Assembly (NCBI GenBank): GCA_037200965.1
Contig: JBBCGK010000001.1
Coordinates: 448,001 to 512,000 of the forward strand
Source: a bacterium
Lineage (GTDB): Bacteria > Patescibacteriota > Minisyncoccia > Phycocordibacterales > Phycocordibacteraceae
Reading direction: 5' to 3'
Length of the DNA stretch: 64,000 bases
Part shown: positions 24,586-46,571 of the stretch, piece after piece
Layout of the letters: each line of letters opens with the position of its first letter
How positions within the stretch are numbered: the stretch's first letter is position 1
Translations under genes and position numbers: made by a program
Notes under the pieces: model-generated
The model's input: the letters and a program-made list of their open reading frames with translations, nothing else
Databases searched by the model: none
Told to the model about the DNA's origin: nothing

Positions 24586-24594
24586 TTAAAAGCC

Positions 24595-25931: not shown

Positions 25932-25939
25932 ATACCAGC

Positions 25940-26692: not shown

Positions 26693-26765
26693 GTAAGTGA
26701 GCAACATGGATATTGGAAAGGAGCCTGACTTCGCCTCGGATGCCTACTTTGATAATCCGCAACAA

Positions 26766-26801
26766 GTTGCACAACCTCCTTTTTACGAACGATCCTGCAG
26801 G
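26766..26801 (-). repeat. 36-bp array repeat, copy 2
   Basis: Exact match to the 36-mer. Confidence 0.95.
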
Positions 26802-26803
26802 AC

Positions 26804-28715: not shown

Positions 28716-28850
28716 GCGGGATCACGTTTTTTTGCAGATGGCACGCCCGCGTGGGCTGTTTTGGTAATTGCCATAGCGTCTTGGCAACAACTGGGCGTCA
28801 GTACCTGGCTTCCCTCACAGGTTGAATATATTACAGTATAGCTCAACCAT

Positions 28851-29855
28851 ATGTTGAGTCGCCGCATGCCCGGTATTACCGAATTACTTTTGAAAATCGC
28901 GCCCAAGATCGGCGCAAAAGTGCTGATCGAGCCTGAGTGGGGCTACGTCGGGCAAATCGCCTTCCGAAGCGGTCGCAAGCGGTACTTCCGGTTCTCCAGC
29001 GTTGACGTGAATACGCTGGGCGCATCGGAAGTCGCGAAGGACAAAGATTTTGCGAACTTCTTCATGAAGCACATGGGTTATCCCATCGTGAAAGGAAAAA
29101 CGTTCTTCCGGGACGACTGGGCAGAGACAATCCGCTCCAAGCGAAAGATCACGGCCGCCTATCGATACGCGCGACGGCTGGGATTTCCGGTGATTGTGAA
29201 GCCTAACAGCGGCAGTCAGGGGAAAGCAGTATGCTTGGCTCGCACGAAGCGTCAATTCTATCGCGGAATGCGGGCGACCTTTGAGGTGGACAAAGTCGCG
29301 CTTGTCCAAATACCTGTTTCAGGAAAAGACTACCGCATCGTGGTCTTGGACCGAGAAATCATTTCGGCGTACTACAGGGTTCCGCTAAGCGTCGTCGGCA
29401 ATGGAAAAGCTTCCGTAGCGGCGTTGCTCAAGTCGAAGCAGAAAGAGTTTCGGCGCGCCGGGCGCGACACGGCGATCAGGGCCGACGATCCGCGCATAGC
29501 GGAAAAGCTCGAGCATCAGGGACTGAGCTTCGCTTCCGTTCTCCGAAAGGATCAAAAGGTTTTTCTTTTGGATAACGCCAACCTTTCGACGGGCGGCGAA
29601 TCGGAAGACGTAACGGAAAGCGTGCACAAGGAGTTCAGGAAAATCGCGGTGTCGCTTACGAGGGATATGGGACTGCGCCTGTGCGGCGTCGATCTCATGA
29701 TAGACGGGGATATCTCGGAGCCGCCCAAAACGTATTGGGTGCTTGAAGTCAATTCGGCCCCGGGGCTCGATCATTATGCGAAAAGCGGCGCGGCACAAAA
29801 CAAAATCGTCGAAAAGATGTATACGACGGTGCTTAAGAGCTTGGATCGTGACTAG
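28851..29855 (+). CDS. ATP-grasp family ligase (RimK / cyanophycin-synthetase-like fold)
   Basis: YRYARRLGFPVIVKPNSGSQGKAV. DYRIVVLDREIISAYYR. ANLSTGGESEDVT. CGVDLMIDGDI...YWVLEVNSAPGLDHY. Confidence 0.65.
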   Translation: MLSRRMPGITELLLKIAPKIGAKVLIEPEWGYVGQIAFRSGRKRYFRFSSVDVNTLGASEVAKDKDFANFFMKHMGYPIVKGKTFFRDDWAETIRSKRKITAAYRYARRLGFPVIVKPNSGSQGKAVCLARTKRQFYRGMRATFEVDKVALVQIPVSGKDYRIVVLDREIISAYYRVPLSVVGNGKASVAALLKSKQKEFRRAGRDTAIRADDPRIAEKLEHQGLSFASVLRKDQKVFLLDNANLSTGGESEDVTESVHKEFRKIAVSLTRDMGLRLCGVDLMIDGDISEPPKTYWVLEVNSAPGLDHYAKSGAAQNKIVEKMYTTVLKSLDRD

Positions 29856-29947
29856 CTCGTGTATAGTCCATACGACCGATCTTCCTGACACCAATAGGCA
29901 TCGGCCAAATCGTGATTGCTGACCAACGTTTTGCGCCGAGCGACCGC

Positions 29948-30238
29948 CTAGTCGGGATCGTAGGGATTATTGGTATCCGTGCCATTGCGCGAGGAACCAG
30001 ACGGCGAACTATACGGATCGACGCGCTTGTGACCTTGCTCGCCCGTATAGGGGTTCACGTTTGGATACGTCGAGTAATTGTTATAGGGATTGCTGTCAGG
30101 CGATGAGCGATGGTGTGGCGGAACATACGTGCCGTCCTTCCGCACATAGCCTCTGACACTGACGTCCTTCGCTGCCGCCTCAGCGCCAGTGGCCAGCAGG
30201 GTCGTGAAGACCAAAAGGGCGGCAAAAATCTTGCGCAT
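29948..30238 (-). CDS. small secreted hypothetical protein (Pro/Tyr/Asn-rich)
   Basis: MRKIFAALLVFTTLLATGAEAAAKDVSVRGYVRKDGTYVPPHH... has a signal peptide. Confidence 0.5.
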   Translation of the reverse strand: MRKIFAALLVFTTLLATGAEAAAKDVSVRGYVRKDGTYVPPHHRSSPDSNPYNNYSTYPNVNPYTGEQGHKRVDPYSSPSGSSRNGTDTNNPYDPD

Positions 30239-30348
30239 ATTAACTCCGATCAAAAATGCGGCTCGATGCTAGTTTAGTGGCTGGCGCAGGGCCAGAGGAA
30301 TAATCTTCGCAAGCGTGCGTCAGGCCACGCCCTACGGTAACGCGTCGA

Positions 30349-31314
30349 TCAGTTCGCCTCGTCGAAAATCCCATTCAGGATCGCCCCAAGCCGCACCCCT
30401 GCCGCCTGCAAGCGCTCTTCCACGATGGCGGCGCGGTCTTCCTTGTAGTTGCCGTCGGGCGCGAAGACGCGAACGGCGCCACCGGTATACGTCTCGCTGT
30501 CTTCGGAATAGCGGCAGGTGGTGCCGGAGAGCGTACAGTATCCGGTGTCGGGCGCGCGGGAGACGGTGAGCGATTCGTTGGCCCATACCATCGGATCGAG
30601 CGACGCCTTCCACGTTGCCCGCTGCTCGTCCGTGATTTCCTTTTGAAGAACATTGCCAAACGCCTCGCGCCCAGGGCCTGCTGGCTTCGTCTGCGCGATG
30701 TGGAGATCACGCATGACTTGTTCGGGAATGCAGGTGTCCCACACGGTATGGAGCGCGGTTTTGCCGTCATAGGCGCAGCCCGAGACGCCCTTCACGCCGA
30801 CGCTGTTGCCGCCGCGATCATCGGCATACGAAATGTGGAGCGGCTGGTGTATGTCGCCGAGCCAGTGCCCGAGGAATTTGAGGGCCGTGCGCTTCTTGTC
30901 GGTTGAGGCATTCGGGTCTTTGAGGATGGCGATATCGGCGGGGATGGCCGTGAAAAGGCACGTCGCCGCATTCACGCACTTGGCCTCGGGGAAGCTCGTC
31001 CAATCGCGCGGCATATTGATGAAGTGCTCCGCCCTCCGGCTGCTTTGCACATCGCCCTTCTCGTCCGGCCAGGTGCAGGCCCCGTGGAAGGTTCTCGGTA
31101 TCTCCTTGCCGTCAGCGTCCTTAAGCGGGGTTTCTGAGCGGATAAGCTTGTTGACCGCCTTGCGGGCCGTCGGCGTGAGCTCCTTGTATGCGATCTCGCA
31201 GACCGCCTCGTGGCCGGTGCCGCCGAAGGCGAGGGCACCGCTCGTTGTGAGACAAAGACTGACGAAGCCACCAGCTCCAAACAGCGCAAGAAGAACCCGC
31301 CGACGTCCACCCAT
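30349..31314 (-). CDS. S1/P1-family zinc-dependent secreted nuclease
   Basis: Signal peptide. FGGTGHEAVCEIAY. HFINMP. LKFLGHWLGDIHQPLH. LHTVWD. These are the S1-P1 nuclease Zn-ligand motifs. Confidence 0.8.
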   Translation of the reverse strand: MGGRRRVLLALFGAGGFVSLCLTTSGALAFGGTGHEAVCEIAYKELTPTARKAVNKLIRSETPLKDADGKEIPRTFHGACTWPDEKGDVQSSRRAEHFINMPRDWTSFPEAKCVNAATCLFTAIPADIAILKDPNASTDKKRTALKFLGHWLGDIHQPLHISYADDRGGNSVGVKGVSGCAYDGKTALHTVWDTCIPEQVMRDLHIAQTKPAGPGREAFGNVLQKEITDEQRATWKASLDPMVWANESLTVSRAPDTGYCTLSGTTCRYSEDSETYTGGAVRVFAPDGNYKEDRAAIVEERLQAAGVRLGAILNGIFDEAN

Positions 31315-31444
31315 GTACCCGCTCCCCCTCACTATTCGTGCCCAGGATGCGAGGACTCGCCCTAGCCGAAGAACGGATGATGCCCGGATGATTTCACCCG
31401 TCCAAGAGGAATGTGCGCCTTAGACTTCGTATCGGGCCGGGCCT

Positions 31445-32350
31445 ATGCTGCTTCTATTGGTGGGGTGTTTCTCAGGGGGTATTGGCATGACTAGCGGCAC
31501 GCGAGTTTTTCCGACGCGTTCGTATCGGGCATCATTTCCCATTCATGCGCTTCTTGCCGTCTTCGCGCTTCTCGTCGCGGGTGCGTATGGCCCGGCCGGT
31601 TCGGCCTTGGCCGCGACCAGCGCGGCGTCCTTCTGCCTTGACGCATGCCCCGAGGGCGCGCCGGCAAAGAACAAGACGGTCGTGCACCATGTCTATGCGC
31701 TCAGCTCGAACCCCGACACGAAATTCGCCGATTGGGTCGCGTACAAGATCTCCAAAGCGACCATCGGGTCGAACTGTTCGCGCAAGTGGGCGAAGGACCC
31801 GGACCTAGCGGCCGGCACCACGCTCAAGCCCGCCGATTACAAGGACATCAGTGCGGCGCTCCAGTCCGACCGGGGCCATCAAGCGCCCTTGGCAAGCCTA
31901 TGCGGCTCGAAGTTCAATGCCGAGGCGAACTATCTCTCGAACATCACCCCACAAAAGTCCGACCTCAATCAGGGCGCATGGGTGCGGCTCGAAACCGCCG
32001 AACGCAAGCTCATTACGGGCGGCACCGCGAAGACCGTGTATACCGTCACCGGGACGCTCTACGAAAAGAAGATGCCGCCGCTTCCCAAGGCGAGCGTCAA
32101 GCACAAAGTCCCTTCGGGCTATTGGAAGATCGTCGCCGTCGAGACGGACGACGGGATCGACGCCGTGGCGTTCGTCATGCCGCAGGATACACCCAAAGCC
32201 GCCGATTATTGCGAAACGCGCACCACCATCGGCGACGTTGAGACGCGCTCGGGCCTCAAGTTCTTCCTCGATCTCAACGAGACCGACCGCACGCAGCTTG
32301 AGGAGAGCGAGGCGAAGACCGGCCTCTATGAGGATTTGGGCTGCGAGTAG
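31445..32350 (+). CDS. secreted DNA/RNA non-specific endonuclease (Serratia nuclease / Endonuclease_NS family)
   Basis: N-terminal signal/TM. Active-site motif SDRGHQAPLAS (DRGH). Confidence 0.8.
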   Translation: MLLLLVGCFSGGIGMTSGTRVFPTRSYRASFPIHALLAVFALLVAGAYGPAGSALAATSAASFCLDACPEGAPAKNKTVVHHVYALSSNPDTKFADWVAYKISKATIGSNCSRKWAKDPDLAAGTTLKPADYKDISAALQSDRGHQAPLASLCGSKFNAEANYLSNITPQKSDLNQGAWVRLETAERKLITGGTAKTVYTVTGTLYEKKMPPLPKASVKHKVPSGYWKIVAVETDDGIDAVAFVMPQDTPKAADYCETRTTIGDVETRSGLKFFLDLNETDRTQLEESEAKTGLYEDLGCE

Positions 32351-32371
32351 CACGAGCGCGGGAAGATACGG

Positions 32372-32660
32372 CATGCGCAAGGCATTCATACTGACGCTGG
32401 TGGCGTTCTCCGCACTTGCGGCAACCCCACTCATCGCGCGGACCACGGATGCGGAAGTCCGGGGACAAATGATCCGCGAGTCCATCGCAAGCTATCCCGG
32501 CAACTGCCCGTGTCCGTACAGCACGATGCGAAACGGGCGCTCCTGCGGCGGGCGAAGCGCGTACAGTCGGCCCGGCGGATATGCTCCGCTGTGCTACCCG
32601 TCTGACGTTTCGGACGATATGGTGCGCGGCTATCGAAGCACGCATGGGCTCGGGAACTGA
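32372..32660 (+). CDS. small secreted Cys-rich hypothetical protein
   Basis: MRKAFILTLVAFSALAATPLIA (signal), then ...SYPGNCPCPYSTMRNGRSCGGRSAYSRPGGYAPLCYP. Confidence 0.45.
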
Positions 32661-32856
32661 TCGATCCGATTGATATCTGGCGAAGCGCGCAAACGCTCAT
32701 CTCGCTCTATGGCGATGAGGCGGAACAGTTCGCGCTTCGCCGCGCCGCTACCCTGCTCGGCGAAGGAGACCGGGAGGGCCATGCGGCAATGGCAAGCGTT
32801 GCGGAAGCGGTGAAGAAGCTGCGGCAGGAGCGGCCCGAAAGCGGCGATGCCGTCCA

Positions 32857-33264
32857 CTAGTCGGCGTCCGGCAGCTTATCGGAAGCCTCGGCAAACTCCC
32901 GCACCAGCGCGACGATGTGCTTGCGCCGGGCGGGCGACTTGACCTGCGCGAACGCTCTCGCAAGCGCCCGCCCGTCGGCGCTCGAAAGCAGCGGCATTTC
33001 TTCCGCGAACAGTGCCGAACGGGCTTTGTCGTATGCCTCGGAAACGAAGTATTCCCAGGGCAGATCAAGCACCACCATCATCCGCAACAGCGCTTCAAGC
33101 GGCAGCCGGTTGGTTCCCTTTTCATACTTCTGCATCTGTTGGAAACTAACGCCGAGGCGCTTTCCGAGAGCGAGTTGCGACAGGCCGCGCAGCGTCCGTG
33201 CGGCAAATATCTTTTGGCCGATAATCTTATTGATCTCTGACGAACTGTGCTTGCGCGGGGCCAT
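32857..33264 (-). CDS. XRE-family (Cro/C1-type) HTH transcriptional regulator
   Basis: IGQKIFAARTLRGLSQLALGKRLGVSFQQMQKYEKGTNR. Confidence 0.75.
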   Translation of the reverse strand: MAPRKHSSSEINKIIGQKIFAARTLRGLSQLALGKRLGVSFQQMQKYEKGTNRLPLEALLRMMVVLDLPWEYFVSEAYDKARSALFAEEMPLLSSADGRALARAFAQVKSPARRKHIVALVREFAEASDKLPDAD

Positions 33265-33340
33265 TCTCAATCCCGTTATACTATCGATCTCGCAAATTCT
33301 ATGGCGCGAAAACCCCATTGTCGCGCGCAATCTCAGCCTG

Positions 33341-34324
33341 TTACGCCTCCTTCATCCACTCCCGGTGCATGCGCTCCCATTCCGGGCGCGGCGCTTCGAA
33401 CTCTTCCCGGAACCACGGCATATGCTCTGGCACGAAGACCGTCTCGCGCAGGAACGCGAGCGTCGATTTGACGGCGGGTTTTGCGGCATGCACGCGGTTA
33501 TATGAGATGTAGAGCTTGCCGGGAAGGCGAAACGCAAGCGGAAGGGCGACGAGGTCCGGGTCGCCAAGCGCGTGGTAGGTAGGTGCGAGCGCGATGCCCG
33601 CGCCAAAATGCAGGCACCGCTCGAAGAAGCTCGTCTGGTTGGTGAGGATCGACACGTTCTTGACGACGTTTCCGCCCGACCATGCGGCCCAGGATGCCGT
33701 GCGCGTCTGATACTGGGCGAGATCGAGCAACCGGTGCTCGCTAAGCGCTTCGCTCGTCTGCGGCGTCCCGTGTTTTTGCAGATAGGACTTCGACGCGAAC
33801 AGGGCGTAATGGACGGTCGCGAGCGGCCTCGACACCTGATCCGAATTTCCCGGATCGTAGAAGTGGATGCGGATGTCGAAGCTGTCGCTTCGGGGCGCGG
33901 TGATGTCCTGATCGGGCGATACCTTGAGCTCAATGTTCGGATGCCGTTCGAGGAAGCTCGGCATGAACTGCGCCAGCCAGAGGCTCGCAACCCCGTCCGC
34001 GACCAGGATGCGGCAGTCGCCTTGAACGCTGCCTCCGCTGTCCTTCGCGTCCCTGCGAAGGAGCGCAATGCATTTGCGCGCCTCAAACGCGTTCGGAAGC
34101 AGACGTTCGCCGAGGTCGGTGAGCGCGCAGCCGTCGGTGCCGCGTATGAATACGCGCCCGCCGATCCACTGTTCGAAGCTGCGCAGCCGCTTGCTCACGG
34201 TTGCCTGCGTTGATCCGAGCATCGCCGCGGCCCGCTTGATGCTGCCGCCCTCGGCGATTGCGAGAAAATAGCGGAGATCGTTCCACTGCTCGGGCGAGGG
34301 GTCATCACTATTGGAAAGTACCAT
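33341..34324 (-). CDS. LysR-family transcriptional regulator
   Basis: N-terminal HTH LRYFLAIAEGGSIKRAAAMLGSTQATVSKRLRSFEQWIGGRVFIR, followed by a ~200-aa substrate-binding domain. Confidence 0.85.
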   Translation of the reverse strand: MVLSNSDDPSPEQWNDLRYFLAIAEGGSIKRAAAMLGSTQATVSKRLRSFEQWIGGRVFIRGTDGCALTDLGERLLPNAFEARKCIALLRRDAKDSGGSVQGDCRILVADGVASLWLAQFMPSFLERHPNIELKVSPDQDITAPRSDSFDIRIHFYDPGNSDQVSRPLATVHYALFASKSYLQKHGTPQTSEALSEHRLLDLAQYQTRTASWAAWSGGNVVKNVSILTNQTSFFERCLHFGAGIALAPTYHALGDPDLVALPLAFRLPGKLYISYNRVHAAKPAVKSTLAFLRETVFVPEHMPWFREEFEAPRPEWERMHREWMKEA

Positions 34325-34425
34325 CTTCCGTCCCTTGGCTTCCGGGCGGCGATAATCGAATGGCAATTTAAGCTCCGGCAACAAAAAAATGCATAAGGCG
34401 CCAGGCGGCGCCGTGGAGTAATTCC

Positions 34426-35592
34426 TTGGAAAAGAACGATTTTAGCGCGATACGAAGCGGTACCTACGGGCCCGAACATGCCGCAGCGCATCCCGATGGG
34501 GGAAGCGTATGGCTGCGTCCGGCCGGGGTCGGGGATATTCCGTTTGTGCATAGCCTGACCGTCTCGGACATCTCCGCCGAAACGGCACCGGAGGAGGTTA
34601 TTCGGGCTGTTCACGCCCGCAATCCCGATGCCCTGTGGCTTATCGAGCGCCAAAGAGGCGGGGAGCCACCGGCCCCTATCGGCTATTTCGGCTTCCTGCC
34701 GCTCACCGATCCCGGTCTCGACGCGCTCAAGGAAGGCGCGCTCGACCGCAAGAGCCCGCCGCTTGAGCTTGTGGCCGAGGGCGGCACGCGTCCGGCGGCG
34801 GTGTACGTGTGGGGCGTCGTGGCGCATCGCCTAGTGCGGGTCACCGCGCCGCTCCTCACCCTCGCGCTTTCGCCTTACATCGACGTTCCCTTCTACACCG
34901 TCTCCCAGACCGAAGAGGGGCTGCGCTCGGCCCGTAGGCGCGGCTTCGTGCCGGTCGATGCGCGGATCGGCGACCGGGGCGGGCTCGTGCTGCTGCCGCT
35001 TGGCAGCCTTCTTGCGCCGCCGCCAAGCAAAGTCGCGCAGCTCGACGTGATCGTGGCCTCGAACGCCGAGCACCTCATGATGTGCGCCTATGTTCGCGGC
35101 GTGGTGTTCGGCGCGGAGCAGCTCGCCCCCTACCGCGAGGAATTCGACGGCAACGACTTCTGCGGCATCCAGCTTCTGGGGTTCGTGAACAACGAGCCTG
35201 CGGCAGTGCTTCGCATCCGTCACTTCGCGTCATTCGCGAAATTCGAGCGGTATGCCGTGCTCGAGCGCTTCCGCAAAACGCGGATCAAGTACGAAATCCT
35301 GGAGTTCGGAATCGAGCTGTGCCGCCGCAAGGGATACACGAAGCTCTACGCGCACTCGCAGGTGCGCCTCGTCCGCTTCTATGAGCGGTTCGGCTTTCGT
35401 CTGTGCGCCGCGCAGCGTCCGCTCGTCTTCGCGGATCACGAATACGTCGAGATCGAAGCCGACCTCGCGCCGCATCCCGAGGCGATCACGACCGCCACCG
35501 ATCCCTACGTGATCATCCGACCCGAAGGGGCGTGGGACAGGCGCGGCGTTCTTGACCAGTCAGCGGCACGGCCCGCGACTAATCCCGTCTAG
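34426..35592 (+). CDS. GNAT-family N-acetyltransferase (tandem acetyltransferase-like domains)
   Basis: Two GNAT-like cores, one near 34.6-34.9 kb and a second ...CAYVRGVVFGAEQ...YTKLYAHSQVRLVRFYERFGF. Transcribed divergently from the LysR gene. Confidence 0.6.
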   Translation: MEKNDFSAIRSGTYGPEHAAAHPDGGSVWLRPAGVGDIPFVHSLTVSDISAETAPEEVIRAVHARNPDALWLIERQRGGEPPAPIGYFGFLPLTDPGLDALKEGALDRKSPPLELVAEGGTRPAAVYVWGVVAHRLVRVTAPLLTLALSPYIDVPFYTVSQTEEGLRSARRRGFVPVDARIGDRGGLVLLPLGSLLAPPPSKVAQLDVIVASNAEHLMMCAYVRGVVFGAEQLAPYREEFDGNDFCGIQLLGFVNNEPAAVLRIRHFASFAKFERYAVLERFRKTRIKYEILEFGIELCRRKGYTKLYAHSQVRLVRFYERFGFRLCAAQRPLVFADHEYVEIEADLAPHPEAITTATDPYVIIRPEGAWDRRGVLDQSAARPATNPV

Positions 35593-36098
35593 GAGTGCTC
35601 GACATGGCCGGAACGCTCGATTGCTTTGTCCGCCTTGTTGAACTCGACACCTGCGTGCGTGAGTTGGCACAGCGCAAGCGCGCGAATAATAGGATCAGCA
35701 TATCCGATCTTGATGACGTTCTCCTGGCGCTTGCTGAAGCTCGGGAAACGATCCAGGACGACGCGTATGACGAGATGGCGAGGCGGCGAGCGATAACAAC
35801 GGCGGACATAATGCAGTTCGCAAAAGATTAGCGAAAGCGCGCGGCTCTATTCAAAACGCGGCCTACGACAAGTTCGCAACTATTCGTCCGACAACACTCG
35901 CCCGATAACGGATCATTCGGCAACCAGAGGATAATGAGTATATCGCGGGAGCGAAGCATAGGAGACGATGCAGTGCATAGTCCGTCATAAATTCAACGGC
36001 GGCATCCTGATGGTAGCTGTATAACAGCGTGGTGCCGGAACTTCCCCTTGTAGCCAATACCGGGCTTCGTTACAAAGCTTCAAGGGGAGGCTATATGC

Positions 36099-37734
36099 AT
36101 GCTTAATCACACCTTTGGAGTGATCTCGCTGGGTCGTTTCCTCACTGCTATACGTCCTGCGCGTTATGCGGTCCGCTCTGCCAATCGAACACGCTTCGGC
36201 CAAGGGCTGGTCTCGGTCCGCACCCTAGTCGTCGCTGCGTGCGTTGCAATGAGTTGGCTAGCCGCATTGCCGCAAGCCGCCATCGCGAGCAGCGTCTTGA
36301 TGAGCGTGCCAGGCGAAAGCGACGTAAACTCGGCGGGTGCCTTCACATATTCACTTCCTATTGCAGTTCCGCCCGGGACTGCCCGCATCGTACCGCGACT
36401 GTCGCTTGATTATTCCAGTCAAAGCGGCAATGGCCTCCAAGGCCTCGGCTGGTCGCTTTCCGGATTGCCGGCAATAGGAAGATGCGCGCGCACGGTGGCG
36501 CAAGACGGCGTGCATGGCAGTGTCAATTACGACGGCAGCGACAAATTCTGCTTGGAAGGCCAGCGCCTAGTCGCCCTAAGCGGCGTCTATGGCGCGAACA
36601 ATACGGAATATCGTACCGAAATAGAGAGTTTCACCAAAATTATTTCATACGGAACGGCGGGTAACGGGCCAGCCTCGTTCAAAGCGTGGACCAAGTCCGG
36701 TCAAATCCTGGAATTCGGAAACACGGCGGATTCCCGTATCGAAGCGGTCGGCAAGACAACGGTGCGCGCGTGGGCCGTCAATAAGGTTTCCGATGCCAAA
36801 GGAAACTACGTCACGGTCGAATACACCGACGACCAAACTAACGGAGAGGCGTATCCGGTTCGGATTGATTATACCGGCAATCCCAACGCAACGCCGGTGG
36901 TTATGCCGTACAATTCCGTGCAGTTCACATACACAACGCGCGCAGATATCACGATTGCCTATCAGGCCGGTTCGCAGCAGAAGATCACAAAACTTCTCAC
37001 CAATATTAAGACTTATCAAGCCGCGAATTTGGTTTCCGACTATCGCCTTGCCTATCAAGCCGGCTCATCGCTCGCACATTCGCGTCTAACGTCCATCACG
37101 TTATGTGATGGGTCGGGTACGCCGGTATGCCTTGCCCCCACGACCTTTGGCTGGCAGGGTGGCAGCGGTAGCCTGCCGACAATGACCGGGACCGCATCCA
37201 CTATCATTCCGACGCAAAGCGGTGATTTCAACGTTGACGGATTAACAGACCCCTTTGTCAAAGCCCCGTATTTTGGAACTCAGAGCGGAACGTTCGTCGC
37301 GAGCGGCATGACTATAAGCTATACCGACCCCATATCGGGATTGCCGTGGTCGGGTCTAACGGCTTTCCCCAACACAATGGTCGGGTTTGTATTGGGTGAT
37401 ACCGACGGAGACGGGTATAGCGACGTCACCGCGATGCGGGGTATCGCACATGGCGCTTATGCCAGGTTGGTGGTTACGCGCAACGACCAGCTCGGAAATC
37501 TTGGTCAGATCGGCCTGATCGATCCGCTGCATGCTGGCGCCATATTCAGCGGCGACTTCAATGGAGACGCGCGCACGGACGTTTTCGTGACGGGTGTAGC
37601 TTCTTATAACAGTACGACGTATCTGAGCCTGGGGACCGGATCGTTCACCGCCATCAACATGAGTTCGGTATATGAACCCATCACGACCGCCGATTTTGAT
37701 GGTGACGGATGCACCGATTTCTTGGGATCGACTA
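36099..37734 (+). pseudogene. N-terminal portion of an SpvB-domain / FG-GAP-repeat polymorphic-toxin (Tc-toxin TcB / RHS-like) protein, cut at repeat 3
   Basis: SpvB-type N-terminus (RLSLDYSSQSGNGLQGLGWSLSGLPAIGRCARTVAQDGVHGSVNYDGSDKFCLEGQRLV). FG-GAP-like Ca-binding repeats (FNVDGLTD, GDTDGDGYSDV, GDFNGDARTDVF, ADFDGDGCTDFLGS). The homology ends exactly where the 36-mer begins. The 160 aa after the repeat are frame-read-through junk. Confidence 0.7.
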
Positions 37735-37770
37735 GTTGCACAACCTCCTTTTTACGAACGATCCTGCAGG
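37735..37770 (-). repeat. 36-bp array repeat, copy 3
   Basis: Exact match to the 36-mer. It cuts into the SpvB/FG-GAP ORF. Confidence 0.95.
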
Positions 37771-37784
37771 TTTCCGTTAATCTT

Positions 37785-39125
37785 CTAAGTCTCTTGTTGA
37801 GACGCAACACAGCCCCACGCCGCTTTTACCGAGTCATAGATAAAGCCTACCGTCAGAACCTTGGATATAACCGTCGTGGTTGGCAACGCCGTGCCTTCTG
37901 CCACGAACGACGCCCCCCAGGTAATCGCCCGGGCCGTACCGTCGTCTTTGATCCTGAAGATGAGCGTCTGGAAGTTCGTGGGTGTACCGGAGAGATTTGT
38001 CGTCATCGACGTGATCGCGGTCGCAAGAGCAGTAATCGTCACGGCGTCGCACCCATCGCTATTCACTGTAGGGGTTGCCGAAGAAACAATCGTCGTTATG
38101 CGTGGAGTATTTCTCTTATTTGCAAGAGTCTGTGTACCATTGTTAGTCACGACACTGTCAGCGTTTGTGCCTGCAACCGAGATTCTCAAATCTCCTGTTC
38201 CAACGGTAAGCACTCCTGAGGTGTGCGTTGCAACCCAGTTACCGTTACTAATGTTCCAGGTAAAACCAGTAGCACTAAAGAGATCGGCCCATCCAAGCGC
38301 GGTCGTCCCAAGAGCGGCAATATCATTCGTGACCGGGGAAAGAGCGGAGGAGGTAAGTTGTATCGTTCCTGTTCCGTTGATAGCCAGACCAAGCGTATTG
38401 GTTGTAGGAAGGTAGAGGCGATTACCGGTAGCAGTTGAAGAGGTAGGAGCAAAGCCAGCCGCAGTTGCCAGCGATGCCAACGTCAAAGCTCCGGCGTCGG
38501 TCAAGGTTGCATTGGTGGATGTTGCTTGTGCGCCGCGCGAAGTACCATCGGACCGAAGTATAGATTCATCTGTGGCAAAAGTGGCGGCAGCGGTGACTAC
38601 ATTACTCGGTATATCGCTTGTAAGAGCGACGGTACCCGTGGACGCCGGAAGGGTAATGGTGTTAGTTCCAGCGATTGCCGTAGGGACGAGGGCGATGGTA
38701 CCGGAAGTTGAACCCGAGAAGGTTACACCCTGGGTACCGGAAATGATGCCAGTGGTGTCAGCAATAAGCACTGCCGAGTTCTGGATCAGCTTACCAGTGG
38801 TAGTGTCGAAGCGGGCCACGGCGTTATCAGTTGCTGAAGCCGGGCCTACAACATAGGTAGCAAGGGAAGCAGTCGTAGGAATAACATAGCCGCTTTGGAG
38901 CGCTATAGCGATCGTTCCGGAAGTAGTGATCGGTACGCCGGATACCGTAAGTCCTGTCGGTACCGTAGCGTCAACGGATGTAACCGTACCTCCTCCTCCG
39001 GGGAGGTCTATAAGAAGCCTGTGCGTCGTCGGGTCTGCATATAGACGCACAGGCGTCTTGCCGTCAGCGCTTGAAGCTGCTATCAGCGTTGGAACATCGT
39101 TCTGGTCTCGGTAAGCATCAGCCAT
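37785..39125 (-). CDS. phage tail-fibre-like protein (Thr/Gly/Ala-rich beta-helical)
   Basis: MADAYRDQNDVPTLIAASSADGKTPVRLYADPTTHRLLIDL, then ~400 aa of T/G/S/A-rich repeats. The stop lies 14 nt from repeat 3. Confidence 0.55.
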   Translation of the reverse strand: MADAYRDQNDVPTLIAASSADGKTPVRLYADPTTHRLLIDLPGGGGTVTSVDATVPTGLTVSGVPITTSGTIAIALQSGYVIPTTASLATYVVGPASATDNAVARFDTTTGKLIQNSAVLIADTTGIISGTQGVTFSGSTSGTIALVPTAIAGTNTITLPASTGTVALTSDIPSNVVTAAATFATDESILRSDGTSRGAQATSTNATLTDAGALTLASLATAAGFAPTSSTATGNRLYLPTTNTLGLAINGTGTIQLTSSALSPVTNDIAALGTTALGWADLFSATGFTWNISNGNWVATHTSGVLTVGTGDLRISVAGTNADSVVTNNGTQTLANKRNTPRITTIVSSATPTVNSDGCDAVTITALATAITSMTTNLSGTPTNFQTLIFRIKDDGTARAITWGASFVAEGTALPTTTVISKVLTVGFIYDSVKAAWGCVASQQET

Positions 39126-39127
39126 AA

Positions 39128-39318
39128 TCAGGTACTTTGTACGAGTAATTCCCCGGCACTATTGGCGTAGAGCACCACAGGCGTCTTGCCGTCAGCGCTT
39201 GAGACAGCCATGAGTGCAGGAACAAAGTTTGCGTCCCGCAGATCGTCTACCGGCCCAAAGTCCGACCCGGTAGTGTCGTCGTCCGCCATAAGCGCATGTG
39301 TTGAAGGGTCAGCAACGA
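39128..39318 (-). pseudogene. partial tandem duplicate of the tail-fibre N-terminus, running into repeat 4
   Basis: ...FVPALMAVSSADGKTPVVLYANSAGELLVQ is paralogous to DVPTLIAASSADGKTPVRLYADPTTHRLLI of the downstream gene. The frame begins inside the 36-mer. Confidence 0.5.
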
Positions 39319-39354
39319 GTTGCACAACCTCCTTTTTACGAACGATCCTGCAGG
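39319..39354 (-). repeat. 36-bp array repeat, copy 4
   Basis: Exact match to the 36-mer. Confidence 0.95.
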
Positions 39355-39451
39355 AGTATGAGTACTGATACCGTCCAATCTGCCATTGAATATGCGCGAC
39401 ACTCGCCGTCGTGACGACGTTGAGTTAAGTCAATGGCGATTTATGTTACTG

Positions 39452-39973
39452 TCACCGGACCGGCACGAACCCTTCGGGAAGAAACTGCGTCGGGTCCTTC
39501 CACGGTTCAATAGCAACTGCTTTGGGGTATTTGCTTATCATGTAAGCATCGGTGCAATACACCAAACTTTCGGGATCATCGTCCGAAGGCTCAAGGCCTG
39601 AAAATTCAACCATCACAGATTTCTGGTTGGTAATTTTTCCAAAGGTGTCAATGAACCGCTTGATTTTGTCAAACTCACGCACAAAATCGTCGGGCTCAAA
39701 TAGATAGGAATACACTACTACTGTATTCTCGCCGACGATCCGTTCGGAACCGTCCTCATTTTTCACGCGGAAACGCCCAGCGGCGAGCGGCAATTGGGTT
39801 ACACCGCCATTGATCCGCACCATAATTTCCATGGCGCTATCGACCCATTTGTCAAAATTTTCAACAGGCTTCTGATCGCGATCTTGGTTAGGCAAATAAA
39901 CTGCAAACCGTTGTACCGATTCAGATGTATCGGCACCTAGCGCGGTCTTGAGGTCAAAATCTACGAGCGCCAT
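39452..39973 (-). CDS. hypothetical protein
   Basis: 173-aa ORF that is AT-richer than the core genome. No confident motif. Confidence 0.45.
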   Translation of the reverse strand: MALVDFDLKTALGADTSESVQRFAVYLPNQDRDQKPVENFDKWVDSAMEIMVRINGGVTQLPLAAGRFRVKNEDGSERIVGENTVVVYSYLFEPDDFVREFDKIKRFIDTFGKITNQKSVMVEFSGLEPSDDDPESLVYCTDAYMISKYPKAVAIEPWKDPTQFLPEGFVPVR

Positions 39974-39994
39974 GATCGCTTCCTATTAGCCATC

Positions 39995-40024
39995 AATGAA
40001 AAGGCCCCATAGCCGGGGCCTTAA
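39995..40024 (-). terminator. rho-independent terminator after the PRTase-like gene
   Basis: Minus sense reads AAGGCCCCGGCUAUGGGGCCUUUUCAUU. Confidence 0.6.
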
Positions 40025-40059
40025 AGTAGGCAAAATGCCAAATTGCAACGCTGATGCCG

Positions 40060-40695
40060 CTACCGCGGTCTTGAAGGTCTCCGAATTCCGAGCACCGTTT
40101 TAGGGTCCCGCTTGATCTTTAGAAACCGTCCAAATCCCGAACGAGCGTCTTCAGGTTTCTCCGCTTGTTGGGAAGCTGAACGAATCGCTGTCACTATCTC
40201 GTTAGCAGCTTCTGATATGGGCGGCAAATTTTGCCGGTTATAGTCGCCTGGCGGGATTCCCGCGTGCTTCTTTTTCATATGATTTTCTCCTGTTTCTTCA
40301 CAGGGTTGCGACCCATCGGTCTCAGCCCCGTGTTGATCGGGAGAAAGCCCTTCAAGAATCGGGCCGCGTACGTCGGTTTCCCAGGTTAAGGCTTCGACGC
40401 GAATATCCTGGCCACGGTCCGTCCTTATGCTTTCGCGATGGGGACCATACCCACATAGTACCACAGCGGCATGCGTAGTCGCGCCCGAAATCTCGTGGAC
40501 TATATCCGCAGCAGCGCCAATACCAGCGCCCGTTACTATCAAGTCATAGACCATCAAGATGCGATCACCGGAAAGCGGTTTGTCTGCCGTTATTGCTACG
40601 CCCTTCGCCCAACGCGTCTCGCGATAGATGCAGGCGGGCAATCCGGTTTCGGCGACGAGGGACGAGAGCATCGAAATCGCGCCGACCGGCCCCAT
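40060..40695 (-). CDS. phosphoribosyltransferase (PRTase) domain protein
   Basis: PRPP-binding motif RILMVYDLIVTGAGIGAAADIV. The start abuts repeat 5 at ~35 nt. Confidence 0.6.
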   Translation of the reverse strand: MGPVGAISMLSSLVAETGLPACIYRETRWAKGVAITADKPLSGDRILMVYDLIVTGAGIGAAADIVHEISGATTHAAVVLCGYGPHRESIRTDRGQDIRVEALTWETDVRGPILEGLSPDQHGAETDGSQPCEETGENHMKKKHAGIPPGDYNRQNLPPISEAANEIVTAIRSASQQAEKPEDARSGFGRFLKIKRDPKTVLGIRRPSRPR

Positions 40696-40729
40696 CTCTT
40701 TTTCGATAAAGCACAATCGCGTAATGCCG

Positions 40730-40765
40730 GTTGCACAACCTCCTTTTTACGAACGATCCTGCAGG
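40730..40765 (-). repeat. 36-bp array repeat, copy 5
   Basis: Exact match to the 36-mer. It cuts into the patatin-like ORF. Confidence 0.95.
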
Positions 40766-41363
40766 AAACCATGAGAGAACCCGAGTTGATCTCGGTGGCC
40801 ACGATCTTCAAAGGCGACAACTCGTTAAATTCCTCATAGTTCAGGTCAGCGAACCGAATTCGATCAGGCACTCCATCGTGATCACGACCATTTGCGGCAT
40901 ATAATTCCCGCATACGTTCTCGAAGAACTGTGTTGATGAATTCACGAATGGGCGTTGTGGTGAAAAAGCCTAAGTGCCGCCATATGCGCAGCATTCCAAA
41001 CGTAACTAGGGGAGCTGTTAAAAAAGACAATAATACACCCCCCAACGCCGTAGCGGACAATGCCCATCGAAGTCCCTGGCGGAGGCGAACAAATCTACGC
41101 CAATCATCAGCCCCCAATAACGTTACGGGGGTCAAGTTATGTAGGCTGAGAATATTTTGATCCCTAATGTCGGGATTCATCAAAGTCGAAGCACTGTATC
41201 CCGCCGCGACTAGCGTTGCCACGATCGCGCCAGCTGACGCCCCGGCTACACCTACGAAGGCGAGCCCATTCTTCGCGGCACCCTCCAAAGCACCAATATG
41301 CGCTATGCCCTTAGCACCGCCACCTTCGAATATGCCAAAGGCTGGCCTCTTAGCGTCCATCAC
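40766..41363 (-). pseudogene. patatin-like phospholipase, C-terminally truncated at repeat 5
   Basis: Oxyanion hole FEGGGAKGIAH and nucleophile elbow GASAGAIVATL are present. The reading frame runs straight into the 36-mer (…EINSGSLMVS|CRIVRKKEVVQ) before any DGG catalytic-Asp motif. Confidence 0.65.
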
Positions 41364-41496
41364 TGTATGTATCCTTTCGCAAATCAGGTCGGGGCCTGCA
41401 CAAACGACAGAACATCGGACAGGCTGGTGAAATAATGAGATACCAGCCTTCGCACATTGCTGTTCCGCATACAGATACAGCAGTTGCTAGTTCAAA

Positions 41497-43068
41497 TCAG
41501 TTCAGTTGCTCCCGCACCAACGAAAGATCGTTGAACAACGTTCTCGTAAGATTCGGGATTTTTTCCAGTTTGTCTGCTTGTATTAACTTCGCCATAAAAC
41601 GAATGCTTCCCTCCACTCGCTCGTCATAGAATATTTCGTGCAGAAACTTCCGCCCCTGCCGCAAATCCGTAGCATCAAACAGAAATTCCAGCTTGGCTTC
41701 GTTATCGACCATAGCAACTGCACGCCAAAAGAATCGAGGAAAATTCGCTGTCAGGAGGCTCTTGCGGACTATCTTGCTTAGGGAGGAGCGCGAAACAATC
41801 TCGCGTTTCAGATCGCTTGGGCCATTCAAAAATATGTCCCACTCGAAACGAGCCATATCACTATTGCTCGATAATTTTTTAAGCATCTCTAAAATATGAT
41901 CAAATGCCAGGATAGCATCGTACACGTCGTCAAATCGGACGCGAATTTTGCTATAGAGCGGCACGAGACACAAATCCGCGCGAGCACGGGTTATCTTCGT
42001 CCCACGCTTTCGAGACCAAGTTGTCGTTATGATGTTAGATGGGCCGCTCAGCTTGATCTCAGAGTATGGGCCGATGCCGTCGTCATGCGCATACAGTTTG
42101 GTTATGCGCGTCGCCCGTAGAAGAAAACCCGTGCGAGGTTCGGGTACTATGGGACCAGTTGTGGGCCCAAGGCCGCTGAGTGCGACCGCGTGAAATGCTC
42201 GTTTGCTTTTCTTGGAGCGTTCTAAGTTGAAGTCAAAACTCAGAATGATCGGAATATTGCCCCTCAAGAATGCATTTGCTGCGGCTTGGATATTGGCTCG
42301 CTCGGGCGTCATAAACAAATCCGCTTCGAGACCGACATTGCGCAAAACGCCAGCCATTTGATCGATATCCAAGCCGTCGTTCGGGAGAGCTAGGCCAGCT
42401 GTTGGCAGCGAAGCAAACGCTCGTTTGGTTATTTCAATAGGTGATAAGATTGGATTGTCATACAAATTCGCCGTGCCATGCAGTGTAGTCCACAGAGCGC
42501 TGGTAGCGCATGCGCCAACCTCTCGGTCTTGTTCTTGAAAAGGCAGCGCACGTACAGGCAGATCTATGCCGAAAAGATTTGGTACATATCCGCGCTCAGT
42601 GAGGAAGCGACTCGATGGATTACTCCCAACCGGCGCCAAACACGTTCGCCCAATGATGGTTTCGGGAAGAGGTTTGACAACTACAAAGCCGTGATATCCC
42701 AAGACGTCGAACCTACACTCACCGCGGCCCGAAACGAAAAGCGCTTCGACCATATCTTTATCGAACGGTTGCCGAAAAAAGTGAATTCGTGAACATTCTT
42801 TCGGATAGTTCGCGTGGCATCTCGCGTAGTATCCTGTATGATCTTCGGCGAAATGCTTGTCGATGTAGTCGCGCTCAAATACAAGAGTTTCGATTTTCGC
42901 GGCTTCACAGTAACGAGCTAGAAAAATGACCTGGGGCTTTTGTGCAATTTGCTCCAGTCTAGGTTTAAATGCTCCGGCAACAAAAAGCGCTACCAAGTTC
43001 TCTCGATTGTACTTGAGTACTTGGTAGCGCTCGCCCATGTGATCTAACTGAATATCCGCGTACGTCAC
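41497..43068 (-). CDS. hypothetical protein with a possible papain-like (C39-type) cysteine peptidase motif
   Basis: 523 aa, AT-richer. The segment EQDREVGACATSALWTTLHG resembles the Q...C motif of C39 peptidases. This is weak. Confidence 0.45.
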   Translation of the reverse strand: MTYADIQLDHMGERYQVLKYNRENLVALFVAGAFKPRLEQIAQKPQVIFLARYCEAAKIETLVFERDYIDKHFAEDHTGYYARCHANYPKECSRIHFFRQPFDKDMVEALFVSGRGECRFDVLGYHGFVVVKPLPETIIGRTCLAPVGSNPSSRFLTERGYVPNLFGIDLPVRALPFQEQDREVGACATSALWTTLHGTANLYDNPILSPIEITKRAFASLPTAGLALPNDGLDIDQMAGVLRNVGLEADLFMTPERANIQAAANAFLRGNIPIILSFDFNLERSKKSKRAFHAVALSGLGPTTGPIVPEPRTGFLLRATRITKLYAHDDGIGPYSEIKLSGPSNIITTTWSRKRGTKITRARADLCLVPLYSKIRVRFDDVYDAILAFDHILEMLKKLSSNSDMARFEWDIFLNGPSDLKREIVSRSSLSKIVRKSLLTANFPRFFWRAVAMVDNEAKLEFLFDATDLRQGRKFLHEIFYDERVEGSIRFMAKLIQADKLEKIPNLTRTLFNDLSLVREQLN

Positions 43069-43529
43069 ACTGTGAACGGGATACGCCGACGGTCAGGAGA
43101 AATCTGGTTGGCTTGTTCTCGACTTTCAATTGCCTTGAGCATTGGCGAAAGACGCTTAGCGACTTGCGCAGTAAGATCAGTTCTGGAGGCCGTCGCCTTG
43201 GACTTGGGCCGTGCAGAACTCTTCGTCTTTTTGTGACGCATAGCGCAACCTCCAATTTCGGTGAGCAGGATGTTGCCCTCAGTTCCAGCCCGGCGGGTAT
43301 AAACTCCAACACGGGGATCAAAATCAAGCTCATGGACTTGACTTCCTGGAACGGGGCCGCCTAGGGCTCCCCTGTAACGAATCAGCCCTGTTCTTAACGT
43401 ACCACGAGCGCCTTCGTATCCCCAATATTTTGTATGTGGATAATCCACCAACACAAGTTCTTTGAATGGTGAGGCTGGCCGTTGCCTTTCCTCAGTGGCG
43501 TCGCCGTCCGTTGACCCAATCGCCTGCAT
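43065..43529 (-). CDS. hypothetical protein
   Basis: 154-aa ORF whose stop overlaps the next gene start (ATGA). Confidence 0.4.
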   Translation of the reverse strand: MQAIGSTDGDATEERQRPASPFKELVLVDYPHTKYWGYEGARGTLRTGLIRYRGALGGPVPGSQVHELDFDPRVGVYTRRAGTEGNILLTEIGGCAMRHKKTKSSARPKSKATASRTDLTAQVAKRLSPMLKAIESREQANQISPDRRRIPFTV

Positions 43530-43668
43530 AACAATTTAATGCCTTCCTTCTGGCAGCAGACCACTAGGAGCGGCAGACGGCCGTTCATTATCAGCGTGGA
43601 TCATTGGCTGGACCGAGCCCCAATCGGTGACTGATTCGTACGGCTAAAGACCGCTCGGGTCAACTAAG

Positions 43669-43704
43669 GTTGCACAACCTCCTTTTTACGAACGATCCTG
43701 CAGG
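43669..43704 (-). repeat. 36-bp array repeat, copy 6 (cas-proximal)
   Basis: Exact match to the 36-mer, 32 nt from the cas2 stop codon. Confidence 0.95.
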
Positions 43705-43736
43705 AGTCCGTGTATATTGAGCGGTAACGCGAATTA

Positions 43737-45140: not shown

Positions 45141-46571
45141 TTACCCAAGCCTCGGAAACAGATTCTCCGGTTTCTTATTTTCCGTAACCGCCTCTTTTAT
45201 TTTCTCGCTCGTCGACGGCATGAAAGGACTGAGGAAACGGGCAATCCAATAGAGCTCGGCGGCGAGCCCGGCAATGATCGCTCTTCCCTTTTCCGGATCG
45301 TTCTTCACGAGCTTGAACGGCTCTTCGGCCGTGATGCGTTCGTCGGCAGCTTGTATGCGCGCGAATATGTAATCGAGCGCCTGATCGAAACGGAAAGCTG
45401 CGAACGCATCAATATATTCTTTCGGAAACGCTTCCGACGGGGCAGGACGCGCGACCGGCTCCGGAAGGTGCGTCTCGGCAAGCTTCATCACACGCGCGAC
45501 GAGGTTCCCGAGGCCGTTCGTAAGATTCGCGGTATACCACTCATCAAGCCGCTCCCACGTGACATCGGAATCTTCAACCGGATGCACGTGCCGAAGCAGC
45601 ATGTAGCGGGTGGCGTCCGTACCGTATTTCGCAACAAGCTCGCCCGGGCTTATGACATTCCCGAGACTCTTGCTCATCCGCTGCCCGCCGGAATTTATGA
45701 ATCCGTGATAGAAGACCTGATCGGTGTTCTTAATGCCGGCCGAAAAGAGCATCGCCTGCCACATAAGCGACTGGAATCGCACCTGATCCTTCCCTGCCGT
45801 CTGGAGCGTTTGTCCTTCCTCCCAGAACTTCTTGAAATTGCCGTCCGCGTCTCCGGGCCATCCGAGCGCCGAGATGTAGTTCGTAAGAGCGTCGAACCAG
45901 ACGTACATAACCTGCGTATCGTCTCCCGGAACCGGAACCCCCCACGAAAGCCGCGCTTTCTCGCGCGAGATACTGAAATCCTCGAGCCCTCCTTTCACGA
46001 AGCTGAGCGCCTCCTCCCTCCTCCACTCAGGAATTACGACATCCGGACGGGCGAGGTACTCGATCAGGCGGTCCTGATACTTTGAATATCTAAAGAAATG
46101 ATTTTCTTCCGAAATCTCCTGGAGCTCGAGATTTGGGTGGAGCACGCAATGCCCGTCGGCCAGCTCCTTTTCCGTCTTGTACGCTTCGCATCCGACGCAA
46201 TACCAGCCAACATAGGCCTTCTTATATATATCCCCCGCTGCCTCGCACCGCTTCCACATCTCCTCGGCAGCCCTGATATGCTCGGGGCTCGTCGTCCGCA
46301 TGAACCCGTCGTTAGTGAGTGCGAGCGTCTCCCTAAGCGAGCGTACCCGTCCCGCATAGTCGTCGACGTAGGCCTGCACATCCTGTCCTACTTTTTCGGC
46401 TGACTGGAATATCTTTTGCCCGTGCTCGTCGGTTCCAGTCGAGAAAAATACTTCTTCGCCAGAAAGCCGCCAGAAACGCGCAAGCGCGTCGGCCTGCACA
46501 AGCTCGAGCGCGAAGCCGATATGCTGATCGGCATTCACGTACGGAATCGTTGTCGTTACGTATCTCGCCAT
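45141..46571 (-). CDS. metG: methionyl-tRNA synthetase
   Basis: HIGH-type motif (PYVNADQHIGFA) and KMSKS (QRMSKSLGN). CxxC knuckle (WYCVGCEAY...CVLH). Confidence 0.9.
   Translation of the reverse strand: MARYVTTTIPYVNADQHIGFALELVQADALARFWRLSGEEVFFSTGTDEHGQKIFQSAEKVGQDVQAYVDDYAGRVRSLRETLALTNDGFMRTTSPEHIRAAEEMWKRCEAAGDIYKKAYVGWYCVGCEAYKTEKELADGHCVLHPNLELQEISEENHFFRYSKYQDRLIEYLARPDVVIPEWRREEALSFVKGGLEDFSISREKARLSWGVPVPGDDTQVMYVWFDALTNYISALGWPGDADGNFKKFWEEGQTLQTAGKDQVRFQSLMWQAMLFSAGIKNTDQVFYHGFINSGGQRMSKSLGNVISPGELVAKYGTDATRYMLLRHVHPVEDSDVTWERLDEWYTANLTNGLGNLVARVMKLAETHLPEPVARPAPSEAFPKEYIDAFAAFRFDQALDYIFARIQAADERITAEEPFKLVKNDPEKGRAIIAGLAAELYWIARFLSPFMPSTSEKIKEAVTENKKPENLFPRLG

Follow-up and report, generated by a model that had tools for sequence, protein, structure and literature searches.

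A toxin gene cut at a CRISPR-like repeat points to a Cas1-Cas2 array with kilobase-sized intervals in a Patescibacteria genome

CRISPR spacers are 20–72 nucleotides (nt) long and near-uniform, and the Cas1-only 'mini-integrase' of type V-C and V-D systems, a minimal adaptation apparatus that works without Cas2 beside a Cas12 effector, has an unusual spacer length of 17–19 bp. For Cas1 arrays with kilobase-sized intervals, the literature searched holds no description, only casposons and stand-alone adaptation modules, although absence there is no proof. Here we analyze a window of 64,000 nt, the whole stretch of DNA under study, from a bacterium of the Phycocordibacteraceae (Patescibacteriota; GenBank assembly GCA_037200965.1, contig JBBCGK010000001.1, positions 448,001 to 512,000). 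The window contains the 5' part of a polymorphic-toxin gene of the TcB/SpvB-FG-GAP type (hereafter the stub), which stops at one of six identical 36-nt repeats lying next to cas1 and cas2. The stub is probably a dead 5' piece at the end of 10.9 kb of apparently foreign DNA, one of five 'spacers' in a CRISPR-like array belonging to a stand-alone Cas1-Cas2 pair that would capture long fragments. The Cas1-Cas2 array type with kilobase intervals is well supported and apparently undescribed.

A first-pass annotation had proposed an SpvB-type domain and four FG-GAP-like calcium-binding repeats in the 545-codon part, and domain searches confirm both. The full open reading frame (ORF) track runs from 36099 to 38219 (+ strand). 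Behind a signal-like N-terminus, residues 79–251 match Pfam SpvB (PF03534, E 2e-17) and residues 486–542 match Pfam FG-GAP_3/FG-GAP, and four DxDxDG calcium-binding motifs (residues ~376–384, 432–442, 484–491 and 530–540) align with the motifs of homologues. Among 5.8 billion proteins searched, 584 homologues were retrieved. One of them, the exact 706-amino-acid (aa) ORF, has the database name 'MAG: SpvB/TcaC N-terminal domain-containing protein [bacterium]' (MAG, metagenome-assembled genome); no other exceeds 51% identity over most of the query, with shorter partial matches up to 65%, and the named ones are proteobacterial (Bradyrhizobium, Rhizomicrobium, Thiobacillus, Pseudomonadales). The commonest full-length homologue, 890–950 aa long, consists of SpvB, 7–8 FG-GAP repeats and TcdB_toxin_midN. 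Like the TcB/SpvB-FG-GAP-RHS toxins, the stub has an SpvB N-terminus followed by FG-GAP beta-propeller blades, with 45–51% identity to Bradyrhizobium- and Rhizomicrobium-type proteins. It differs from them in having only four of the ~7–8 blades and in lacking the TcdB_toxin_midN domain (PF12256), the RHS shell and the toxin tip. Therefore, the stub cannot form a functional toxin and is a dead 5' third to half of a TcB/RHS-family gene of proteobacterial type, with ~350–400 aa of the protein certainly missing.

Alignment with homologues (A1) places the cut. The stub is colinear with them up to ...ADFDGDGCTDFLGS (residue 544, base 37730) and unalignable beyond, where the homologues continue with 3–4 further blades and the midN domain; this confirms the truncation at residue 544/545. 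Match end points in tblastn fall at 37718–37751. The gene had been thought to end exactly at the repeat. The loss of colinearity at repeat 3 stands, but the exact point was 1–4 bases off, since the repeat starts at the second base of codon 546 (37735). The frame past this point, antisense to a phage tail-fibre-like gene on the minus strand (37785–39125), had been described as compositionally junk and is without homology; the deposited 706-aa annotation, which joins stub and continuation, is a mis-annotation. When five full-length homologues and midN/RHS ORFs were compared with the whole window by tblastn, they matched 36183–37751 alone. Neither the midN and RHS parts known from two related loci (L070 and L071) nor any in-frame remainder after the repeat was found in the 64 kb. 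The earlier statement that the RHS/YD shell and the toxin are missing is thus correct for the window but needs qualifying for the gene, because the ORF of the commonest homologues ends after TcdB_toxin_midN and the RHS and toxin parts are separate genes of the locus. Some relatives (L071) encode the shell and the toxin tip in this ORF itself, others (L070) in ORFs downstream of it.

The stub lies in an island that was inserted between two host genes. In the closest relative found (L155, MetG 81% identical), the gene order is AI-2E, metG, tatD, S6, SSB, S18, EF-P, and metG and tatD overlap by 4 nt; the same genes flank the island in the window. Because the metG/tatD site is empty in L155, the 20.6 kb between these two genes (24534–45140), amounting to 2% of the chromosome, are an insertion. 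The named homologues of MetG all come from Patescibacteria, Parcubacteria, Paceibacterota or Minisyncoccia, at 70–77% identity. The first-pass view that the interval is a captured fragment, not an intact gene neighbourhood, is borne out by homologues that extend past the cut point, by the lack of any remainder of the gene in the window, by the empty site, by the different lineages of the host and of the stub homologues, and by other interval edges that also cut genes. No target-site duplication was seen around the whole island.

Within the island, the 36-mer GTTGCACAACCTCCTTTTTACGAACGATCCTGCAGG occurs six times without a mismatch, with none expected from 100 shuffles, and delimits five intervals (S1–S5) of 2180, 10,933, 1548, 1375 and 2903 nt (Table 1). 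S2, which ends with the stub, also encodes a TrwB-like ATPase, an ATP-grasp protein, an S1/P1 nuclease, EndoNS, and XRE, LysR and GNAT proteins. LysR regulators are rare in bacteria that belong to the candidate phyla radiation (CPR), and this gene content is unusual for a CPR genome. The patatin gene of S5 (41363 down to 40766) is cut at repeat 5 before its catalytic Asp, covering profile positions 2–118 of 191. The tail-fibre-like gene of S3 has relatives on 379 IMG/VR contigs. S1, S3, S4 and S5 correlate with the host flanks in tetranucleotide usage at 0.37–0.60, lower than the range for host DNA of matching size. When JGI metagenomes were scanned for sister arrays or donors, a 30-mer taken from the repeat gave 0 matches.

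Several observations concern the cargo itself. S1 contains a PurZ-like gene (24900–25931, + strand) of the 2-aminoadenylosuccinate synthetase type and of phage affinity (phrog_1211, E 6e-72), which hints at a Z-genome phage that infects, or was encountered by, this CPR bacterium. In S3, a 74-nt direct repeat (39037–39110 and 39165–39238, 74% identity) encodes an N-terminal motif (..SSADGKTPV.LYA..) that the tail-fibre-like gene shares with the cut ORF upstream of it. The TrwB-like ATPase (27402–28715) and the ATP-grasp protein (28851–29855) of S2 have relatives at 44% and 26% aa identity in the array of a Taylorbacteria genome (L030; 14083–14820 and 16040–16462), which suggests a shared kind of mobile-element donor.

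On the leader side of the array, beyond cas2, lies cas1. Its product scores 221 bits against the generic NCBI model TIGR00287 (cutoff 71.7) and fails all subtype models. The catalytic residues E181, H241, D253 and E256, aligned to PDB 7cr6, are invariant in 31 sequences. At residues ~24–47, Cas1 of the window and of its closest relatives has a basic insertion (..PRKPLGGGRRRKRGTAVKLLRV..) that is absent from the clade members of 333–340 aa. Cas2 is divergent. As single sequences, 21 of 26 Cas2 relatives match Pfam Cas2 below the gathering threshold; the profile of the 26 relatives matches three PDB Cas2 chains (E 0.003–0.015), and comparison of the family with 14 canonical Cas2 proteins from distant loci gives an hhalign probability of 96.9% (E 1.4e-10). 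The invariant Y-D of strand beta1 in canonical Cas2 is W-x-T in the window. The window contains no other cas gene.

The same arrangement recurs across a clade of Cas1 proteins. Searched with the Cas1 alignment, 185,579 species genomes yielded 63 loci, and we count as related those with a Cas1 at least 38% identical and two or more repeats found (n = 19). In all 19, repeats of 36–37 nt start right after cas2 and recur at long, irregular distances; Cas1 relatives of at most 34% identity accompany ordinary arrays with a period of ~73 nt. The 52 intervals of the 19 loci measure 140–10,932 nt, with a median of 1478 nt and none below 100 nt. Their lengths cluster, 18 of the 52 lying at 1.23–1.59 kb; the cas1-cas2-leader unit is about as long (1381 nt in the window). 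Most hosts are Patescibacteria, joined by MAGs labelled FCPU426, 'proteobacterium' and Aenigmatarchaeota. On the cas strand, the repeat consensus of the clade reads CCTGCA-N7-9-GTCGCAAAAAGGA-NN-TTGTGCAAC with symmetric ends (C[CT]TGCA ... TGCAAC), and the leader ends in GGCT in most loci. Taken singly, the repeats fold on the cas strand, most of them with z of -1.9 to -3.1, and RNAalifold gave neither a consensus structure nor covariation. The repeats have no match in Rfam, including its CRISPR-DR families. They are identical within an array and differ between lineages, which argues for duplication of the repeat rather than its import.

The interval edges show no sign of choice. No motif resembling a protospacer adjacent motif or a transposon end was found at the starts and ends of the 52 intervals. 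The best open frame at the left edges is co-directional with cas1 in 30 of 52 cases, which is random, and an open frame of at least 60 codons is present at 65% of edges compared with 81% of random genomic positions, a statistic that is noisy in GC-rich DNA and weighs less than the cut domains. Protein domains are interrupted at edges in several loci: Pkinase starts at profile position 157 of 263 (L019), Cas1 at 95 of 283 (L037), SBP_bac_8 at 85 of 279 and ArdcN at 64 of 123 (both L035), and FAD_binding_3 ends at 220 of 349 (L030). In L030, moreover, a relative of the TrwB-like gene of the window begins at residue 268, directly after a repeat. Within 10 kb on either side of 36 loci, no protein of at least 120 aa other than Cas1 is common to more than five, and no effector or gene for CRISPR RNA (crRNA) processing is linked.

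Strains differ where new material would enter. The same Cas1 protein (P0125) is encoded on six contigs from six samples. Contigs L003–L005 match L001 at 99.96–100% identity as far as the final base of the first repeat (L001:11418). Beyond it they are unrelated to L001, and their DNA after that repeat starts inside an ORF.

Table 1. Coordinates in the window of the island, its array and the adjoining host genes
Feature	Coordinates	Strand	Basis or content
tatD, left flank of insertion	23718..24533	-	
Repeat 1, distal, adjoins tatD start	24550..24585	-	
Interval S1, 2.2 kb, phage-like, foreign composition	24586..26765		phrog_1211 6e-72; tetranucleotide r 0.37
Repeat 2	26766..26801	-	
Interval S2, 10.9 kb	26802..37734		from open frame cut at repeat 2 to SpvB fragment cut at repeat 3
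5' fragment of TcB/SpvB-FG-GAP polymorphic-toxin gene, 545 codons	36099..37734	+	Pfam, 584 homologues, alignment A1, tblastn
ORF-track continuation, non-coding; ORF-calling artefact through repeat 3	37735..38219	+	no homology; antisense to 37785-39125 gene
Repeat 3, cuts SpvB gene	37735..37770	-	
Interval S3, 1.5 kb, tail-fibre-like gene 37785-39125 (-) and 5'-cut paralogue piece 39128-39318	37771..39318		phrog_3030; tetranucleotide r 0.42
Repeat 4	39319..39354	-	
Interval S4, 1.4 kb, two ORFs on the minus strand, family unknown	39355..40729		frame 40060-40716 open up to repeat 5 edge
Repeat 5, cuts patatin gene	40730..40765	-	
Interval S5, 2.9 kb, two unknown ORFs and cut patatin gene	40766..43668		
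Repeat 6, leader-proximal	43669..43704	-	cas-strand sequence CCTGCAGGATCGTTCGTAAAAAGGAGGTTGTGCAAC
Leader, 32 nt, cas2 stop codon to first repeat	43705..43736	-	
cas2, divergent, 98 aa	43737..44033	-	4-nt overlap with cas1 stop
cas1, 351 aa	44030..45085	-	Pfam Cas_Cas1 1e-63; TIGR00287; PDB 7cr6; invariant columns of alignment A2
metG, right flank of insertion, host gene of Patescibacteria type	45141..46571	-	

The agent of fragment capture is most likely the adjacent Cas1-Cas2 pair. The pair would take up long double-stranded DNA fragments with arbitrary ends and join the 3' ends of a fragment to both borders of the leader-proximal 36-bp repeat, and gap repair would then duplicate the repeat. 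The chemistry would be that of CRISPR spacer and casposon integration but without a length ruler, so that 0.14–11 kb could be stored and genes would be cut wherever the captured fragment ended. Ruler-less integration at the first repeat would account for the array-specific identical repeats, the motif-free ends, the random orientation, the genes cut at both interval ends and the divergence at the first repeat. We infer the integrase role of Cas1-Cas2, the polarity of integration and the purpose of the array from such sequence comparisons.

A number of points weigh against this mechanism. The evidence is comparative throughout. Canonical Cas1-Cas2 measures its prespacers, with Cas2 as part of the ruler; since Cas2 is present here, a length ruler would be expected. 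The search for a donor (protospacer) gave nothing closer than an SpvB homologue of 51% identity, and there is no linked effector, hence no known executor for defence. S2, the interval with the stub, is a 2.6-fold size outlier among the intervals, the next largest being 4.2 kb, and its tetranucleotide correlation of 0.913 is almost host-like, marginally below the 2.5th percentile of the host (0.917). Its apparent foreign origin rests on the empty site, the gene content and the single location of EndoNS, which in a look-up of exact protein copies only was found at this place alone, and not on composition. A search for degenerate or half copies of the repeat inside S2, made to see whether it is composite, found none with fewer than 13 mismatches. 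Finally, the cas1-cas2-repeat unit is multi-copy in some MAGs, and its movement could explain part of the pattern.

This last point leads to an alternative in which the repeats mark the ends, or are the scars, of a small mobile element made up of cas1, cas2 and the repeat, or of a miniature inverted-repeat transposable element derived from it. Repeated nearby insertions, deletions and recombination would then have trapped DNA between the copies, in place of a capture of free fragments. The unit itself indeed seems to be mobile. In FCPU426 and 'proteobacterium' MAGs, a unit of ~1.5 kb, which begins 100 nt upstream of cas1 and includes the whole first repeat, occurs at several sites with 97–99.9% identity, and the identity stops where that repeat ends. 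One MAG (MFD05512.bin.1.167; L022, L025, L032 and L037) holds three full copies and partial ones at 99.7–99.9% identity. Copies of the unit also concern L021–L024, L031 and L041, and the left end of the unit is hairpin-like (TCCACGACGGGGACCCTTCGTG). In L001, the 18 nt after the single repeat (AGGGAGTATGAGCGGGAT; 11419–11436) are duplicated 14 nt upstream of the cas1 start (9969–9986), as also in L006, and both units look like insertions with a target-site duplication. A truncated unit also lies between two repeats in L037 (10003–11083): it comprises the 3' two-thirds of cas1, cas2 and the leader, is 100% identical to the intact unit of L022 and ends exactly at the repeat. It is most simply a captured piece of another array. 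Movement of the unit as the source of the intervals is nevertheless unlikely. Because L155 has nothing at the site that the array occupies in the window, there was no resident DNA for the repeats to enclose. No gene resumes across a repeat: the remainder of the SpvB gene is absent, the interval after the L019 kinase is only 144 nt long, and the FAD-binding gene of L030 gives way to an unrelated TrwB-like piece. Around the multi-copy units, a duplication of the target-site type was seen in L001 and L006 only.

Alternatively, the 36-mers may be recombination sites at which circular cassettes are exchanged, as in integrons, by a site-specific recombinase, either Cas1 acting differently or an enzyme encoded elsewhere. 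Direct repeats do part gene-sized units beside an integrase-type gene. In addition, every repeat of the clade carries, on the cas strand, AAAGGA(G/T) at a distance of 11–16 nt from its 3' end, with a conserved GTG after it. This Shine-Dalgarno-like element (AAAGGAGG), which could pair with the 3' tail of 16S rRNA, faces the downstream interval. The random orientation of the intervals, however, speaks against a simple role of the motif in an expression cassette, and the intervals contain cut genes, not complete promoterless ORFs. No recombinase of the tyrosine or serine type is conserved near the arrays. The repeats are identical within and specific to each array, whereas attC sites travel with their cassettes, and no identical cassette common to arrays was found, the one long match between two loci being 2.35 kb at 87% identity. 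We regard such an exchange of cassettes as decidedly unlikely.

A further possibility is that repeat 3 and the DNA after it were inserted into an intact resident toxin gene, or that the gene is a natural short isoform. Polymorphic-toxin loci often hold orphan fragments, and three of the top homologues (P0002, P0004 and P0006) are short. These three are a frameshifted gene, a gene split by IS66 or a fragment, with no natural short form among them. In P0002 (L070) a frameshift splits the gene, and downstream of it come a separate ORF for midN, an RHS/YD-shell ORF of 1202 aa and an ORF with a Colicin_E5 tip; P0006 (L071) is split by IS66 and carries on as a 1478-aa FG-GAP and RHS ORF; both lie in proteobacteria-like contexts with TetR, MFS, TonB and RND genes. 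Homologues thus do not end naturally at the cut point, and in these two split genes the remainder is found downstream, whereas none is present in the 64 kb here. Together with the CPR host and the insertion of the whole region between genes that otherwise overlap, this largely refutes both forms of the idea, which we consider very improbable.

The assembly also supports the junction. The SpvB/repeat 3 junction is present in two NCBI assemblies (L151, 100%; L152, 99.95%), the second of which covers 33291–48219; a Logan contig (L154) spans 28569–35164 at 100% and so confirms the interior of S2, and a fourth assembly holds the left part of S2. The ends of the deposited contig JBBCBH010010897.1 (960,259 bp) meet at window positions 32699/32700, inside S2, and since a Logan contig bridges them at 100%, the genome (~0.96 Mb) reads as circular. 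Although the source is a MAG whose contig both starts and ends within the window, a chimera of a proteobacterial contig and a CPR genome at the repeat is scarcely credible given these independent copies, and a 36-nt repeat, shorter than or close to the k-mers of metagenome assemblers, is a less likely place for a false join. Elsewhere in the window, a 23S rRNA gene of ~4.3 kb (1882–6226, - strand) contains a group I intron (2304–2520; Rfam 67.6 bits) and lies near a 5S rRNA gene (753–860), and two adjacent large ORFs (10578–12212 and 12317–14293, - strand) share paralogous segments (e.g., 10720–10808 and 13998–14086, 76% identity).

The toxin gene itself carries little weight. It is an ordinary dead fragment, and its worth lies in revealing the array type. 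Genes of phages and mobile elements (PurZ, tail fibre, ArdC, the TrwB-like ATPase, RHS tips) are over-represented in the cargo of the arrays, which also includes cellular genes, even cas1. Our first preference for the purpose is a defence-related store of phage and mobile-element DNA, which may be independent of an effector or be served by one in trans; opportunistic gene capture would come second, and a by-product of a selfish cas1-cas2-repeat element third. On balance, we lean towards the view that this Cas1-Cas2 clade, centred on Patescibacteria and also present in DPANN archaea and other MAGs, inserts DNA of kilobase size and arbitrary sequence into repeat arrays without a linked effector and so forms a 'long-spacer' relative of CRISPR. 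If this is true, a CRISPR integrase can work without a length ruler, and genome-reduced CPR bacteria, and apparently DPANN archaea, have an unnoticed route for taking up and retaining foreign DNA. The clade could represent a Cas1-driven way of archiving genes and DNA in ultra-small symbionts, which would raise the question of what use an effector-less archive of phage and host DNA is. It could also provide a natural enzyme for kilobase insertion at a defined site, the Cas1-Cas2 pair being a candidate for sequence-independent insertion at a 36-bp target.

Among the described systems, integrons are similar in that gene-sized units are parted by short repeats beside an integrase and form an archive of foreign genes. 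The arrays here have no linked IntI and no attC structure, their repeats are identical and not cassette-specific, and their cargo consists of random fragments with cut genes in both orientations. The resemblance to a CRISPR adaptation module is closer. The active site of Cas1 is intact, a homologue of Cas2 accompanies it, the leader is short, the 36–37-bp direct repeats lie within the 23–55 nt usual for CRISPR, are identical within an array and have symmetric TGCA-containing ends, strains vary from the leader-proximal repeat on, and part of the cargo is phage-derived. The differences lie in the intervals, which have no uniform length and range from 140 to 10,932 nt with a median of 1.5 kb, in the lack of a linked effector or crRNA-processing gene, in a Cas2 without the Y-D motif, in a Cas1 that fits no subtype model, and in repeats that match no Rfam CRISPR-DR family. 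Type V-C and V-D mini-integrases shorten spacers, whereas the system here lengthens them ~50-fold and does so without an effector. With casposons, the clade would share a Cas1-family integrase that inserts kilobase-sized DNA and duplicates its target, and its unit is multi-copy in some genomes. No family-B polymerase lies beside cas1, whose neighbours are metG and the array, with none conserved, and no terminal inverted repeats were seen at the unit ends; casposons are flanked by a target-site duplication of 14–15 bp, and the 18-nt duplication of L001 and L006 has no counterpart in the window. In casposons, the inserted DNA is the element itself. Here it is heterogeneous, the duplicated target is a fixed 36–37-bp repeat that builds up as an array, and Cas2 is present. 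A system alive today that pairs cargo of casposon-like size with repeats arrayed as in CRISPR would bear directly on the long-standing hypothesis that CRISPR arose from casposons, and the long-spacer clade could be a surviving link from casposons to CRISPR adaptation.

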